IMG/VR virus record: IMGVR_UViG_2671180543_000005
Source of the DNA: a virus
Lineage: Duplodnaviria; Heunggongvirae; Uroviricota; Caudoviricetes
DNA length: 6,181 bases
Reading direction: 5' to 3' (one strand)
Part shown: positions 1,054 to 6,181 of the stretch, one piece after another
Layout: each line of letters opens with the position of its first letter
Numbering within the stretch: position 1 is the first letter of the stretch
Translations under genes and position numbers: made by a program
Notes under the pieces: model-generated
Databases searched by the model: none
What the model was told of the DNA's origin: nothing
The model's input: only the letters and a program-made list of their open reading frames with translations

Positions 1054-1683
1054 TCAGCCCCGGCTGGATCCAGTCATCAGGCTCTTTCTTAAAGGGGGAG
1101 TATTGAAATCACGAAGAAGAGCCTCCCGCACCGCAGCATCCATGTCTGCACCACTGGCAAGTGCTTCAATCTCTGCCGCCACCTGCAAATACCCCATGCA
1201 ACGGCCAATGCGTTTCATAACTCTGGTGTTTTCGTCTTTCAGGCATCTGATAGCGAGATTAATAATTTTCAGGCAGTGATGATGCGATGCCCGGACAGGT
1301 TTTCCGTTCTCATAAACGACGAACTCACCCTCTTCACAGGAAACCCTGAAAGGCCGATGGGGTTCCTGGTCTTTATCCGGTGCAGACGCAATAAAATCAC
1401 TTTTATGCTCTTCCTCTCCGGCACTGTTAACCGTAATGACGTACTCAGGCCGCAGGTAAGCCGCCTCTTTTTCTGACAATGCGGCCGGTAAAAACTTTTC
1501 CTGCAAAAACTTCATAAAAGTCTCGTGAGCGACTTTGTGGCAGTAATCGTAAATCGCCGCATAATGCTCATCGCGGCGTTTGTTTTCATCTTCAGAACTC
1601 ACCAACGCCGACAATTTTTTATTAAGCTCAGTGATTTCATTTTCCAGGTGATTGAATCGCTGATTCATTTCTTCATGCTTCAT
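1054..1683 (-). CDS. hypothetical protein (209 aa) between holin and endolysin; family not recognised
   Basis: Longest ORF in the interval. ATG at 1683-1681 lies 3 nt after the stop of the upstream holin copy, with GGGGAGAG 7-8 nt upstream. Predicted N-terminal coiled-coil-like segment (NQRFNHLENEITELNKKLSALV), acidic linker, and C-terminal region with clustered His/Cys (SHHHCLKIINLAIRCLK, GRCMG). No TM segment seen. Function unknown. Confidence 0.6.
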   Translation of the reverse strand: MKHEEMNQRFNHLENEITELNKKLSALVSSEDENKRRDEHYAAIYDYCHKVAHETFMKFLQEKFLPAALSEKEAAYLRPEYVITVNSAGEEEHKSDFIASAPDKDQEPHRPFRVSCEEGEFVVYENGKPVRASHHHCLKIINLAIRCLKDENTRVMKRIGRCMGYLQVAAEIEALASGADMDAAVREALLRDFNTPPLRKSLMTGSSRG

Positions 1684-1895: not shown

Positions 1896-2111
1896 TTATT
1901 CACCTCTCGCAGCCTTACGCTTGTCTTCTCTGATTTTGAAGTACAGATTTGTCAGATAAGTCAGGAAGCCCAGAACCAGACTCCCCAGTACACCAATCGC
2001 AGCCCACTGTGACGGACTGACCTGATCAAGCCACTGTAAAAACCAGTAGCCAGCACTGCCTGCGGAGGTGCCGTAGGCAATGCCCGTTGAAATTTTGTCC
2101 ATGGATTTCAT
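1896..2111 (-). CDS. S: class II holin / pinholin with dual-start motif (phage 21 S-like)
   Basis: 71 aa, [30 protein letters not shown]..., near-identical to phage 21 S / DLP12 EssD as recalled. Met1 and Met4 give the antiholin/holin dual start. Two predicted TM segments and a charged C-terminus. GGAGGTGA 5 nt upstream of the ATG at 2111. Confidence 0.9.
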
Positions 2112-2271
2112 AGCCTCACCTCCGCAAATAACGGATGGCGTAGTTTTACACTGAGAAATGAAAGGGATTTGAAAAGAAAAAAACGCAAAAGCGGGCGAAA
2201 CGATATATACAGTAAGGAAAGCACTCTATCCAACAAACCACCCACAGTTAATCGGAATAAAAGCAGAGTGC

Positions 2272-2344
2272 TTATGAATGATCGCACGCCCGAAGGTTAG
2301 TATTTCTGCACAGCAATTTTGCAAAAAAAGGCGATCATTCATAA
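2272..2344. repeat. perfect 14-bp inverted repeat (TTATGAATGATCGC / GCGATCATTCATAA) with 45-nt spacer, in the holin leader
   Basis: Arms at 2272-2285 and 2331-2344 are exact reverse complements. Each arm contains a GATC. Confidence 0.7.
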
Positions 2345-2351
2345 CTTAAAC

Positions 2352-2397
2352 GTCTTTCAGTCACTCCGGGATTTCCCATCATCGCAGACTGAAAGAC
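2352..2397. repeat. perfect 11-bp inverted repeat (GTCTTTCAGTC / GACTGAAAGAC) with 24-nt loop, just 3-prime of tRNA-Gly
   Basis: Arms at 2352-2362 and 2387-2397 are exact reverse complements. The repeat lies 7 nt beyond the tRNA-Gly 3-prime end on the transcribed strand. Confidence 0.7.
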
Positions 2398-2403
2398 TCT
2401 GAC

Positions 2404-2478
<75 letters not shown>

Positions 2479-2481
2479 ATA

Positions 2482-2557
<76 letters not shown>

Positions 2558-2559
2558 GC

Positions 2560-2636
2560 TGGCCCACCACCGAGGACTCGAACCTCGCACCGTCAACTTA
2601 GAAGGTTGATGCTCTATCCGGATGAGCTAGTGGTGG
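2560..2636 (-). tRNA. tRNA-Arg (anticodon UCU)
   Basis: 77-nt cloverleaf: acceptor CCACCAC/GUGGUGG, D-arm GCUC...GAGC, anticodon stem UCAAC/GUUGA, loop CUUCUAA, T-arm CGAGG-UUCGAGU-CCUCG, CCA encoded. Reads the rare AGA/AGG codons, like the argN/argO-type tRNAs of lambdoid prophages. Confidence 0.8.
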
Positions 2637-2637
2637 T

Positions 2638-2714
2638 TGGTGGCCCTTGCTGGACTTGAACCAGCGACCTGGCGATTATGAGTCGCTCGCTCTGACCAAC
2701 TGAGCTAAAGGGCC
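2638..2714 (-). tRNA. tRNA with CAU anticodon, ileX/ileZ-like (probably tRNA-Ile2, lysidine-modified; could be annotated tRNA-Met)
   Basis: 77-nt cloverleaf: acceptor GGCCCUU/AAGGGCC, anticodon loop CUCAUAA, T-arm GCUGG-UUCAAGU-CCAGC, CCA encoded. Overall sequence resembles E. coli ileX (tRNA-Ile2) as recalled. Confidence 0.75.
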
Positions 2715-2802
2715 GGAGGCAGAATAATAACCATATGTCATCACATCTGCAAACTCATCTGACCACCAGCGTGTTTAACGTCCTGTACCGTTTTTCAGGC
2801 AT

Positions 2803-2824
2803 AAAAAACCCGCCCGGAGGCGGG
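2803..2824 (-). terminator. intrinsic (Rho-independent) terminator, candidate tR-prime of the Q-dependent late transcript
   Basis: On the minus strand: 6-bp GC stem CCCGCC/GGCGGG (2809-2814 with 2819-2824), 4-nt loop, followed by UUUUUU (plus-strand A run 2803-2808). Lies about 90 nt downstream of the Q stop and just upstream of the tRNAs. Confidence 0.55.
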
Positions 2825-2827
2825 TTT

Positions 2828-2913
2828 AAGCTGTGTGGCGAAGCAACCACTCTTAACAGAATATCCCGTTTTTTACGTACGTAAAATATTTTCTAGAAAG
2901 TCGCCCCTTACCA
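2828..2913 (-). promoter_or_regulatory. expected position of the Q-dependent late promoter (pR-prime) and Q-utilisation site; exact -35/-10 not resolved
   Basis: Placed by synteny only: between the Q stop at 2914 and the terminator hairpin. AT-rich, with weak candidate hexamers (TTTTAC, 17 nt, TATTCT on the minus strand). No confident sigma-70 match by eye. Confidence 0.3.
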
Positions 2914-3294
2914 TCAGGGATGTTCAATATATTTGTCCATTTCTAACCGGACACCCAACATCATCAACATTCCTTCCACCACCCCCTCGGCTTTTTGTAG
3001 CTTCTTTCCTATATAACCATCTGAGCATCCATGCTTCCGCGCCAGCGTCATGAATGTCATCCCAAACACGTAGTAGTCAACCAGCAAGTCATGTAGATCG
3101 TTGTTGTTCCGGTTAAGGCGGGCCATACACCCACATATAACCATCGCGTCATCGTCACAGCATTGCGGGCGGGATTTTACTTTTGAAGGGATTAATCCCT
3201 TAAAACCGGCAGCAATGGACGACCAGGTCACATCCTCATGATTATTAGCCACCCACGCGCCCCAGCGCTCAAGAACCTGCTGAATATCACGCAT
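2914..3294 (-). CDS. Q: late-gene antiterminator Q (phage 82 / DLP12 QuuD-like)
   Basis: From [34 protein letters not shown]... the protein closely matches DLP12 QuuD as recalled. Cys cluster [14 protein letters not shown] fits the Q zinc-binding motif. Start placed at the ATG at 3294; the track start at 3330 is a TTG. The 5-prime end overlaps the ninH stop by 8 nt. Confidence 0.85.
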
Positions 3295-3487
3295 CACTGT
3301 CTTTACCCCTGTCCCATCCACGATGAACAATCAGAACACCATCAACAATGGCGTGCCCTTTGCCCTCTTTATCTTCAGCATATTTTCTTACCGTGGCGCG
3401 ATTACAGTTCAGCATTCGTGAAACTTCGGTCATATTACCTCGTGTCTGGATAAGCAGTTCCGGTATCGTTTGAATTTTGACGCTCAT
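3287..3487 (-). CDS. ninH: NinH-like small DNA-binding protein
   Basis: [58 protein letters not shown] resembles lambda NinH as recalled. ATG at 3487 with GGAGAG 6 nt upstream. Sits immediately upstream of Q, as in lambda. Confidence 0.8.
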
Positions 3488-3581
3488 CAAATACTCTCCG
3501 GTTCGGTGATTTTTATCCCGGGCTTTCCACCAGGGACATAATGATCGCGCACAAGCCAGGGCAAAACAAACTCATGGCGCA

Positions 3582-3839
3582 TCAGCGCAGCGCCTCCTGC
3601 ACCAGTTTTTCAAACTTTCCGACTCTGGTTTCCAGCTCTGCCACACAGTCCACCAGCTCATCTACTGCTTTCTGTGCGCGATGCTTCGCCTGCATCAGTT
3701 CCCGAAGCGCGGGTACCATATCTTTACGGATAGCATCTTTTGTTATGCCCGTTTTTTCGAGTTGTTCAGCATGACGCAGCATTTCCTGCGCGTGTTTACG
3801 CAATTGTTCAGGGGTAAAAGTCATTGTCTGGTTGTTCAA
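3582..3839 (-). CDS. hypothetical small helical protein (80-85 aa), nin-region ORF of unknown function
   Basis: ORF immediately after the helicase. A TTG at 3839 overlaps the helicase stop (TTGA) with GGAG 7 nt upstream. The first ATG is at 3824 (80 aa) with no obvious SD, so the start is ambiguous. Predicted all-helical and highly charged. No family recognised. Confidence 0.5.
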   Translation of the reverse strand: MNNQTMTFTPEQLRKHAQEMLRHAEQLEKTGITKDAIRKDMVPALRELMQAKHRAQKAVDELVDCVAELETRVGKFEKLVQEALR

Positions 3840-5227
3840 AAGAAACGCTCCATCTTACTGCTGTCAGTTCGTTTATTACTGTATCTGCGCGGATTGCCGG
3901 GCTTCATGGGAGTGGAAAGCACCCGTGCACTTTCCTGGTCCACAGGCAGAAAATGTCCGTTATAAAAACGCCGGTAAATCGTTCCCAGAGAACCGTTACG
4001 TTGTTTCGTGATATTGATTTCTGCGATGCCCCTGGCCTGCGTATCCGGGTTGTACACTTCATCCCTGTAAAGCATCAGAATGATGTCTGCATCCGCCTCT
4101 ATTTCTCCGGAATTTTTCAGGTCTGAGTTCATGGGACGTTTATTGGGTCTGGACTCCACACCGCGGGAGAGCTGGCTCAGCGCAATCAACGGAAAACCAC
4201 CGGATTTTGCCAGGCCTTTAAGCCCCTTTGAGATTTCACCCACGGCAAGGTCATGACGCCCCGTGGTTCGGTTTTTTATCAGCCCGAGATAATCAACCAC
4301 CACCAGCGCCGTTTCCGGATATTTAATCAGGTGGTGTTTCGTTGTTGCGCATATCTCATCAATGGCCAGGTTCGCCTGGTCCACCATCCAGATATTGCGC
4401 CCGGTCATCCGCCCCACCCCTTGTGAGAAACGCGTCCAGTCTTCATCTTCAAAGTGAGCCACAGATTTCAGGCGTGATACTGGCATCCCTCCAGCCGCAG
4501 ACACCATACGTTCACCAATCTGGATGTTCGCCATCTCCATGGTGAACAGAAGCACACCATGCCCCTGCTCAGTCACCTTGTCGATGATGTCCAGCGCAAG
4601 TTCGGTTTTCCCCATCGAAGGACGGGCGGCAATGAATACCAGGTCTCCGGGCTCCATACCGCCTGTTTTTGCGTCCAGTTCATCAATACCGGTCATCAAC
4701 GTCCTGGATTTCTCCAGCCCCTGATTCCGGCATTCAACACGCTCAACCACTTCCGGAAGCACATCATCAATATGTACCGGCTGAATGACGCCCTTTCCTG
4801 TCGACAGTGTGACCATCATGTTCTGCGCATCCTTCAGGGCATCTTCAGCTGCTTCACAGGTATGCGCATCACGTAATTTCTGCAGCGCCTCATTCAGTGT
4901 TTTTTCTGCATCGCGCAGTGCGGCATTGCGCCGCAACGCTGCAACATAGTGCTCCAGTGAAGACTTCACCCAGGTTTTACGCCCGGTATCAGTAATCACC
5001 GGGGCAAGTTCCGGCATCTCATTACACAACAGCACGGGGTCAATCACTCCTGAAACACGGGCCTGTCTGCAGATGCCTGTATAGATATCCTGATACGCTC
5101 GTACAGAAAAAACGTCCGCTGGCAGTGTGGCCAGAATATCCATCACTTCAGGATCTGCTCCGCGCAGAAAGAACGCGCCGATGACAGCGCCTTCAAGGTC
5201 ATCGTTACGCCATACTGGAGTTGTCAT
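3836..5227 (-). CDS. DnaB-family replicative DNA helicase (phage-encoded)
   Basis: 463 aa. Walker A AARPSMGKT, Walker B-like VVVDYLGLI, and the DnaB C-terminal block SQLSRGVESRPNKRPMNSDLKNSGEIEADADIILMLYRDEVY. ATG at 5227 overlaps the loader stop (ATGA), with GAGGTG 9 nt upstream. Confidence 0.9.
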   Translation of the reverse strand: MTTPVWRNDDLEGAVIGAFFLRGADPEVMDILATLPADVFSVRAYQDIYTGICRQARVSGVIDPVLLCNEMPELAPVITDTGRKTWVKSSLEHYVAALRRNAALRDAEKTLNEALQKLRDAHTCEAAEDALKDAQNMMVTLSTGKGVIQPVHIDDVLPEVVERVECRNQGLEKSRTLMTGIDELDAKTGGMEPGDLVFIAARPSMGKTELALDIIDKVTEQGHGVLLFTMEMANIQIGERMVSAAGGMPVSRLKSVAHFEDEDWTRFSQGVGRMTGRNIWMVDQANLAIDEICATTKHHLIKYPETALVVVDYLGLIKNRTTGRHDLAVGEISKGLKGLAKSGGFPLIALSQLSRGVESRPNKRPMNSDLKNSGEIEADADIILMLYRDEVYNPDTQARGIAEINITKQRNGSLGTIYRRFYNGHFLPVDQESARVLSTPMKPGNPRRYSNKRTDSSKMERFF

Positions 5228-6102
5228 GCAGCCACACCTCTGATACGAGAACGGTAACTGGGCCAGTTAAACGACAACCAGTTGCGTCCCCCGTCTGTGA
5301 TCCTGTCGGCAATTCGGGGACTGATGAACGCCCACAACTCTTCCGGTGAGAGGTTACTGATCAGAATGGTGGGCAAGATACTTTCGTACCTGGCGTTGAT
5401 AATTTCCTGCAAAATAGCCATTTCAGCCGCGCTGCCAAACTGAACGCCAACTTCGTCGATGATCAGCAAATCCATTGACGCATAACGCTCAATAACTTCA
5501 TCCGCTGTTTTTTCGCTGTCATTCCGCCAGCAATTTTTCACAGCACGGGTAAGGCGCATCACGTCGGTGATCTCCACACTGGCCAGATAGTTACGGATGA
5601 TGTGTTTTGCCATAGCCACAGCCAGATGATTTTTTCCGGTACCACAACTGCCGGTCATAACAAGACTGGTACCGTTCTCCAGCATATCTGGCCAGTTCTC
5701 CGCATAGCGGCGACAGGCCGCAAGATTTCTGGCTGCGCCAGGATTAACCTCCAGATAATTATCAAACTCGCAGTCCCGAAAACGCAGGGCAATTCCGGCG
5801 TTATCAGTCAGCTCTTCCGCCTTGATGGACGACAGCTCCATGGTCAAATCGTTGGCCTCAGCGATTAAGCAGTCAGGGCAGCATGAAATTTCTTCTCTGT
5901 CCTCGCCATTACGATCGCTCCACACCAGTATATGCGTGTGATATTCGCCATGTTTTTCGCAATATCCGCGACCTTCACGCATCAGGCAGGAACGATAAGG
6001 CCATGGCTTTTCGCCCTTCTGAGCAAATGCAATCTCTGCCCGTAACTCATCCATTCGCGCCTGTAGTCTTTTTTGTTGTTCACGCAGGTTAAACGTCATC
6101 AT
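5224..6102 (-). CDS. DnaC-like helicase loader (AAA+ ATPase) with N-terminal Cys/His cluster
   Basis: Walker A TGSCGTGKNHLAVAMA, Walker B DLLIIDEVGVQ, and C-terminal FNWPSYRSRIRG matching the E. coli DnaC C-terminus as recalled. Start placed at the ATG-ATG at 6102 with GAGGTGA 6 nt upstream; the track start at 6171 is a GTG in an open frame. N-terminal region has a C-x3-H...CC-x2-C cluster. Confidence 0.85.
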   Translation of the reverse strand: MMTFNLREQQKRLQARMDELRAEIAFAQKGEKPWPYRSCLMREGRGYCEKHGEYHTHILVWSDRNGEDREEISCCPDCLIAEANDLTMELSSIKAEELTDNAGIALRFRDCEFDNYLEVNPGAARNLAACRRYAENWPDMLENGTSLVMTGSCGTGKNHLAVAMAKHIIRNYLASVEITDVMRLTRAVKNCWRNDSEKTADEVIERYASMDLLIIDEVGVQFGSAAEMAILQEIINARYESILPTILISNLSPEELWAFISPRIADRITDGGRNWLSFNWPSYRSRIRGVAA

Positions 6103-6181
6103 CGCTGTCACCTCAGAATGTCTGAAGTGGCACACTGAATTTGGCCACCTGAACAGAGGTGATATGCTCACCTCAGAACAA

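Follow-up and report, generated by a model that had tools for sequence, protein, structure and literature searches.

A short YdfR-family protein encoded between the holin and lysozyme genes of a lambdoid prophage is probably an impaired product of a late-operon accessory gene

What is encoded by an open reading frame (ORF) of 630 nucleotides that separates the holin gene from the lysozyme gene in a prophage lysis cassette? The window studied here is the whole 6,181-nucleotide stretch of the IMG/VR virus record IMGVR_UViG_2671180543_000005 (Caudoviricetes), and the ORF in question, referred to as the target ORF, occupies positions 1054–1683 on the minus strand and has 209 codons in the ORF list. 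A first-pass annotation, made from the sequence alone, placed it in the lysis cassette, and its position between a class II holin gene (PF04971, E-value of 1e-35) and the gene of a signal-arrest-release (SAR)-like lysozyme is confirmed. The same annotation could not assign the product to a family; however, the protein is homologous to YdfR-family proteins, which fill the slot between the holin (S) and lysozyme (R) genes. The target ORF is probably an ordinary accessory gene of the late operon that has become impaired. The gene, its family, the slot, and the exact protein are already catalogued in public databases, where they are uncharacterized.

The family placement is based on a match to phrog_1085, a profile of unknown function, with an E-value of 1.2e-73, in which residues 1–209 of the target correspond to profile positions 117–288 of 296. 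A search of 5.8 billion proteins identified 132 relatives, all from Escherichia coli or Shigella, many of which are 268–333 residues long, contain the domain PF07041 (DUF1327), and carry the NCBI name 'YdfR family protein'. The target is homologous to the C-terminal part of these PF07041-bearing proteins (phmmer E-values of 1e-30 to 1e-100). The long forms are organized into DUF1327 (approximately residues 1–75), a linker, and the region to which the target aligns, so that the entire target is matched by their C-terminal two thirds, with 82% sequence identity to the long form P0004. Long relatives are recognized by PF07041, for example P0004 with an E-value of 6.6e-35, whereas the target ORF has no PF07041 match at E ≤ 1. 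A Pfam scan of 54 family members found DUF1327 as the sole domain, in seven long forms. Lacking DUF1327, the predicted target protein is not a YdfR in the Pfam sense.

Whether the target is related to the ydfR product of E. coli K-12 had been raised as a question in the first-pass annotation. K-12 YdfR and the target have no significant similarity (BLASTP E-values of 0.09–0.18); however, over the first 74 residues of the 296-residue long form P0090, K-12 YdfR has 81% identity. According to these alignments, K-12 YdfR and the target are complementary, non-overlapping pieces, the front and the back, of one long protein. The relationship therefore fails as direct homology but holds in the sense that the target is the back half of a protein whose front is K-12 YdfR. 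Judged by sequence comparison, the target is almost certainly a stand-alone short form of a long YdfR-family protein. A match to a characterized family routinely found in the S–R slot, including YdfR/DUF1327, had been named as an outcome that would deprive the gene of novelty. Such a family does occupy the slot routinely, but it is catalogued rather than characterized, and DUF1327 is absent from the target.

The target protein is composed of an N-terminal helical hairpin (residues 3–64), a disordered acidic linker (65–108), a three-stranded sheet with helices (109–196), and a frameshifted end of 12 residues. The C-terminal domain of the family has the core GRCMGYLQVAAEIEA and the conserved motif H...GR[CSA]MG[YL]LQ.AAE, and the target has H136, G160, G164, L166, and Q167 in columns that are invariant in 54 sequences. 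The coiled-coil-like N-terminus and acidic linker described in the first-pass annotation correspond to two long helices and to the disorder of residues 65–108 in an AlphaFold model. By contrast, the His/Cys-rich character attributed to the C-terminal half is not conserved: only one His is invariant family-wide, and relatives have Ser or Ala in place of the Cys of GRCMG. A Zn-binding His/Cys motif was rejected because the residues are not conserved.

The AlphaFold model of the target ORF, computed with 21 sequences, is poor, with a predicted local distance difference test (pLDDT) score of 54, and a Foldseek search of the Protein Data Bank (PDB) with this model was discarded as meaningless. The model of long form P0004, computed with 54 sequences, has pLDDT scores of 80–96 for DUF1327 and about 80–89 for the C-terminal domain, which has approximately 105 residues and is built from three strands and four helices; lower scores, 50–64, are obtained for the helical segment, and the linkers are disordered. 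A Foldseek search of the P0004 model against BFVD returned nothing at E ≤ 1e-3. Sequence and profile searches of the PDB gave best E-values of 0.05–0.08, attributable to coiled-coil noise, and scans of the target ORF against Pfam and NCBIfam produced no match.

The conserved core of the target is followed by a lesion. A frameshift that removes the conserved tail was overlooked in the first-pass annotation. In an alignment with loci L002, L003, L009, and L010, one nucleotide is deleted at positions 1094–1098 of the minus strand, where intact relatives have ACGCCACCCTTTAAG and the window has ACTCC-CCCTTTAAG; expressed as a DNA change, ACGCCACCC has become ACTCC-CCC, and the frame shifts after Pro197. 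The deletion is shared by L001, the closed genome of E. coli CFSAN029787. The last approximately 20 codons are shifted, and the tail is replaced by 12 unrelated residues, so that the family end ...DFNTPPFKKEPDDWIQPGLTYLKGRI is changed to ...DFNTPPLRKSLMTGSSRG in the target. A relic of the tail persists out of frame at positions 1031–1093 of the minus strand, where three-frame translation shows that the neighbouring frame encodes FKKEPDDWIQPGLTYLKRRI followed by a stop codon. The family tail has the pattern PPFK..P..W..PG..YLK.RI; among the residues missing from the target are K, W, P, and Y, none of which varies within or between the E. coli and Salmonella branches. Of the 198 clusters with the core motif, 185 retain the tail motif; the exceptions, which include the target's own cluster, are mostly partial or frameshifted. 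The allele remains intact over 196 of 217 residues. The exact 209-residue protein is present on at least 1000 public contigs, mostly of Shigella flexneri, where it is named 'bacteriophage protein [Shigella flexneri]', and its database accession WP_001300760.1 is labelled 'hypothetical protein'. The lesion has therefore become fixed in a lineage of wide distribution and does not stem from a sequencing error.

Slippage by −1 on the CCCCC run that arose through the deletion (1094–1098, read on the minus strand as ACT CCC CCT TTA) would yield ...NTPPFKKEPDDWIQPGLTYLKRRI, which is identical to the ancestral tail. The run does not form a canonical slippery heptamer of the type X XXY YYZ, and there is no sign of its use; it may be that some ribosomes regain the tail in this way.

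The lesion raises the alternative that the target ORF is a non-functional remnant, a decaying gene of a Shigella/E. coli prophage that may still be translated but has no role. This is possible, although unlikely. The one-nucleotide deletion that removes the invariant K, W, P, and Y of the tail agrees with it, as do the absence of the DUF1327 domain, the annotation of related copies in L009 and L010 as NCBI pseudogenes ('frameshifted' and 'incomplete'), and the resemblance of other tail-less family variants to frameshift products. The exact allele is found mainly in Shigella flexneri, a lineage rich in pseudogenes. The out-of-frame tail is nearly unchanged, which suggests that the lesion is recent. 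However, 196 of the 217 codons, including the whole conserved core, are intact, the ribosome-binding site and start codon are preserved, and the domain is not interrupted by a premature stop. Furthermore, 85 of the 185 tail-bearing clusters do not have a DUF1327-like motif, which indicates that the short form is a stable architecture and, therefore, that the loss of DUF1327 alone is not decay.

Selection on the sequence argues that the frame is a coding one. The ratio of nonsynonymous to synonymous substitution rates (dN/dS) is 0.34 for the target against a 213-residue homologue and 0.24 against gp05 of phage 86, and within the C-terminal domain it is 0.15–0.30. The low ratios between homologues, together with the occurrence of the exact protein on so many contigs, make the target more than a chance ORF, and at the level of the family it is, by these sequence measures, a real gene. 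An untranslated frame artefact had been listed among the findings that would remove the novelty of the gene. It is not borne out by the dN/dS range of 0.24–0.34, and its probability is close to nil: the ratios are well below 1, the family has 542 members in two genera, the ribosome-binding site is strong, and the C-terminal domain of the long form is modelled with confidence. To the extent that sequence analysis allows, it is excluded.

The junction with the holin gene indicates how the target may be expressed. The holin stop codon TAA (1689–1687) is followed by the three bases ATA and the target ATG (1683–1681), all on the minus strand, and a Shine–Dalgarno sequence, GGGGAGAG, is situated at 1697–1690 within the 3′ end of the holin gene; the start 3 nucleotides past the holin stop and the strong Shine–Dalgarno sequence are as first described. 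No sigma-70-like promoter or intrinsic terminator was found between the holin and lysozyme genes on the minus strand. Because of this junction and the lack of an intervening promoter or terminator, it is a fair inference that the target is co-transcribed and translationally coupled with the holin, in agreement with the placement for co-expression with the pinholin proposed earlier. In lambdoid phages, the antiterminator Q activates the late transcript, on which the target ORF would lie. A separate promoter for expression in the lysogen was considered, and none was detected; therefore, the target should be silent in the lysogen and a role there is unlikely. The GC content of the target ORF, 47.5%, is close to that of the neighbouring genes.

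The coupling of the target start to the holin stop is one of the points in favour of a lysis-timing regulator, a cytoplasmic factor that would modulate the triggering of the pinholin or the release of the SAR lysozyme. Members of the family also adjoin the holin gene in two genera: they immediately follow it in E. coli and immediately precede it in Salmonella, even where the holin is of another type. However, the region from Q to R is a general cargo hotspot that also receives stx, esterase, DUF1378, and DUF826 genes, which makes adjacency to the holin weak evidence. The target protein is soluble, with a maximum 19-residue Kyte–Doolittle hydropathy of 0.76 and no membrane segment, and a membrane or antiholin-like protein is rejected because no hydrophobic segment exists in the ORF. 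In phage 21, the antiholin is a product of the S gene itself; the family gene is missing from other cassettes of this type; and few sequenced phages, five records, have the C-terminal domain. The target has no membrane segments, muralytic domain, or spanin lipobox or signal anchor, and it matches no Pfam lysis family; the holin, lysozyme, Rz, and Rz1 are provided by the neighbouring genes. The role in lysis timing suggested by the first-pass annotation has gained no supporting result and is improbable.

A second suggested role was that of a moron with a defence, exclusion, abortive-infection, or anti-defence function. The patchy and mosaic locus, the fast-evolving middle region of the protein, and the position in the late-operon cargo hotspot are in line with this suggestion. 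On the other side, PADLOC-DB v2 gave 0 families at E ≤ 1 for the target ORF, a negative that says little on anti-defence because PADLOC models defence systems. No promoter of its own was detected, and silence of the gene in the lysogen is expected. Late timing is atypical of anti-defence genes, and the GC content resembles that of the neighbours. The exclusion, abortive-infection, and anti-defence roles share the PADLOC negative, and a moron of this kind is improbable.

The preferred reading, a soluble accessory gene of the late operon, is consistent with the contents of the holin–lysozyme slot in other prophages. A family member lies between holin and lysozyme in L001, L002, L003, L004, L009, L010, L012, and the K-12 Qin prophage (essQ-ydfR-rrrQ). 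The occupants differ. K-12 Qin has DUF1327 alone in ydfR (103 residues), and PhiR12_2 has DUF1327 with a coiled coil alone (169 residues). The Stx2b prophage of E. coli 2015C-3121 (L002) has a 213-residue short form followed by a separate 75-residue DUF1327 gene, and L009 and L010 have copies annotated by the NCBI pipeline as frameshifted or incomplete pseudogenes. In the DLP12-like prophage of strain FDAARGOS_944 (L011), the slot is empty, and the holin gene runs straight into rrrD. These differing occupants support the earlier description of the slot as a known variable insertion point, and by sequence comparison the slot is a mosaic locus that is decaying and is found at every stage. Identical-type cassettes that pass from holin directly to lysozyme, as in L011, and the scarcity of the C-terminal domain in phages argue that the gene is accessory and dispensable: among 50,697 phage records, 100 contain DUF1327 but only 5 the C-terminal domain. 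In L002 (positions 3501–4397), each module of the long protein has its own gene and their order is reversed, and the 75-residue DUF1327 gene is divergent; a small ORF on the opposite strand precedes the lysozyme gene.

The family extends beyond the relatives that were initially recognized. Among 1.84 billion cluster representatives, a filter-only HMMER scan detected just 40 clusters at E ≤ 1e-3, and a profile search enlarged the family to 542 proteins by adding a large branch from Salmonella enterica, all annotated as 'hypothetical'. The 542 proteins are from Escherichia, Shigella, and Salmonella only. In a set of one-genome-per-species representatives, three loci were matched, all on Escherichia or Shigella contigs. 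The N-terminal domain of the Salmonella proteins is related to DUF1327 (hhalign probability 88%, E-value of 3e-6), and because the Salmonella branch has both this domain and the C-terminal domain, the two-domain layout is ancestral. In the Salmonella enterica loci L007 and L008 (2157–4579), the family member is immediately preceded by two adjacent genes that have faint pertussis-toxin-S1/Scabin-like (ArtAB-type) matches. In L005 and L006, the cargo region between Q and holin contains a HicA/HicB pair.

The window itself contains what appears to be a second holin gene, and the first-pass annotation described the gene next to the target as a holin copy, which implies a duplication. The native class II (phage-21-type) holin is present as a 186-nucleotide 3′ fragment at 1687–1872 next to the target ORF; a run of ten N, a scaffold gap, occupies 1873–1882; and a complete class II holin gene is at 1896–2111. 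Window positions 1909–6122 correspond to 1771–5984 of L001 with 99.5% identity, and positions 58–1872 to 5812–7626 of L001 with 99.2% identity. The two blocks share 173 base pairs of the holin on either side of the N run. The holin fragment adjoining the target has one mismatch to the holin of L001 (closed genome CP011416). The complete copy departs from the native holin at 20 positions, none of them before nucleotide 50, and continues into 13 nucleotides of the start of the following lysozyme (1883–2111 in all); the complete holin and these 13 nucleotides are 100% identical to the DLP12-like prophage of L011, in which rrrD directly follows the holin. The closed genomes L001 and L012 have one holin and then the target ORF. 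Because of the N gap, the truncated copy, and the single holin in closed genomes, the second holin copy is a scaffold artefact, and a true tandem duplication was rejected. By sequence alignment, the window unites in one scaffold two contig ends that broke within a holin repeated among prophages. The contig end on the Q side follows the L001-type prophage up to holin nucleotide 50 and then a DLP12-type holin and the start of rrrD; this switch reflects either recombination or a chimeric assembly path through the repeat. The linkage of Q and the tRNA genes to the target ORF presumably holds, as judged from the closed genomes and not from the window itself.

The remainder of the window is a replication-to-lysis segment of a lambdoid prophage in which every gene is on the minus strand according to the ORF list, Pfam, and ARAGORN. 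A DnaC-like ATPase is encoded at 5224–6171, with 315 residues from a GTG start in the mechanical ORF call, as opposed to 292 residues ('ATP-binding protein') in the closed-genome annotation. Its stop codon overlaps the start of the DnaB-type helicase gene (3836–5227) in an ATGA-type overlap at 5224–5227. The helicase gene is followed by an 85-residue helical ORF (3582–3839), which has only sub-threshold Pfam matches and is the hypothetical protein WP_001064799.1 in L001, by ninH (3287–3490), and by the gene of antiterminator Q (2914–3330; PF06530, E-value of 6e-54). Four tRNA genes predicted by ARAGORN lie between Q and the holin at 2404–2714. They are Gly-TCC, Thr-TGT, Arg-TCT, and one with the anticodon CAT, which is assigned to Met by ARAGORN and to Ile in the NCBI annotation of closed genomes; in a sister block in L011, Lys replaces Arg. 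The order tRNA, holin, target ORF, lysozyme, and Rz forms a conserved block that recurs in different prophage backbones (L001 and L012).

Downstream of the target by 65 nucleotides is the lysozyme gene (455–988; 177 residues; PF00959, E-value of 5e-24), which is annotated as lysozyme in L001. The N-terminus of the enzyme appears SAR-like from its Gly/Ala-rich segment. The Rz spanin ORF (54–473; PF03245, E-value of 2e-23) and the ORF of the Rz1 lipoprotein (44–238), which is in another frame of the ORF list and ends 10 nucleotides beyond the Rz stop, complete the cassette. Alignment with L001 stops at position 58 of the window, whose Rz ORF terminates at 54, and the 'lysis protein' of L001 (155 residues) extends further. 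Positions 1–57 represent either a different 3′ end of Rz or a recombination point at the window edge.

What might the target protein do? The only experimental clue is from the front piece of the ancestral protein. Residues 1–72 of K-12 YdfR bind the N-terminal catalytic half of RNase E, as demonstrated by two-hybrid and co-purification assays, and YdfR co-purifies RNA (PMC13232886, 2026). This report was the only publication retrieved by literature searches on DUF1327, the YdfR family, the protein accession, and the PHROG identifier. The ancestral protein consists of an N-terminal DUF1327, a helical or coiled-coil segment with a variable disordered linker, and a C-terminal domain of approximately 105 residues with a conserved tail. 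The target allele starts at the helical segment and so lacks DUF1327. Its product would be made from the same Q-dependent late message as the holin, lysozyme, and spanins, as a soluble accessory late protein outside the lysis machinery. In the whole two-module protein, the DUF1327 half may dock on the catalytic half of RNase E, the C-terminal domain may serve as the effector or partner half, and the protein could act on host RNA metabolism late in infection. This mode of action is tentative and rather doubtful. The chances are about even that the target copy, without DUF1327 and the tail, is weakened or inactive. In a bolder version, the C-terminal domain would be a new fold-level family, and long forms, or short forms acting in trans with separate DUF1327 genes as in 2015C-3121, would reprogramme host or phage RNA decay at lysis; this is highly improbable.

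Several observations weigh against the reading of the target as an impaired piece of a two-module, RNase E-directed protein. Overproduction of YdfR barely alters the transcriptome (PMC13232886), and the RNase E evidence maps to DUF1327, which the target lacks. The short form is common among tail-bearing clusters (85 of 185 without a DUF1327-like motif) and may act alone, so that a two-module view is not compelled. The translation and coupling of the target are predicted from sequence features only. The allele is intact over most of its length and widespread, although its spread may simply reflect clonal descent of Shigella. Taken jointly, the identity, expression context, and accessory status proposed for the target ORF are nevertheless somewhat favoured.

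The result changes little for the biology of lysis. It improves annotation: WP_001300760.1 and its relatives can be labelled as C-terminal modules of the long YdfR-family proteins, K-12 ydfR being no more than the front piece. The C-terminal domain, represented in the 542 proteins, has no Pfam model and no fold recognized in the searches made, and it travels with prophages carrying Stx (Shiga toxin) and ArtAB-type toxins, which makes it a reasonable target for follow-up of the 2026 report on YdfR and RNase E. The window also advises caution, since N-gaps in draft scaffolds may imitate gene duplications within repeated prophage modules.

Among known systems, the long YdfR-family proteins, which include gp05 of Stx2-converting phage 86 (L003; YP_794052.1, 268 residues), P0004 (333 residues), and P0090, occupy the same slot as the target and start a few nucleotides past the holin stop; in phage 86, the last position of the holin gene is 2172 and the first of the YdfR-family gene is 2177. 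The identity of the target to long forms other than P0004 is 43–58%, and the core sequence and the layout of strands and helices are common to all. Unlike these proteins, the target has no DUF1327, begins at its own start, MKHEEMNQRF..., and has lost its tail to the one-nucleotide deletion. K-12 YdfR (b1555; DUF1327/PF07041) has a target-like slot in Qin, where the essQ-ydfR junction has the same kind of coupled start, and derives from the same long ancestral protein. However, it is the N-terminal DUF1327 piece, and its RNase E-binding residues are absent from the C-terminal piece that constitutes the target.

The Salmonella enterica relatives (approximately 190–340 residues, 'hypothetical proteins'; P0127, P0164, and P0126) have the C-terminal domain and tail, as in the E. 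coli family, with approximately 30% identity to the E. coli proteins. They are late-operon genes adjoining the lysis cassette; however, they are located upstream of the holin, between Q and holin, unlike in the E. coli slot. Further counterparts of the target are the short forms with intact tails (213–217 residues), among them WP_001015165.1 of 2015C-3121, P0030, and P0002, the last of which is 89% identical to the target. They have a target-like slot, no DUF1327, and the start M[KN]HEEMNQRF, and they end in ...PPFKKEPDDWIQPGLTYLKGRI, the tail that the target has lost.
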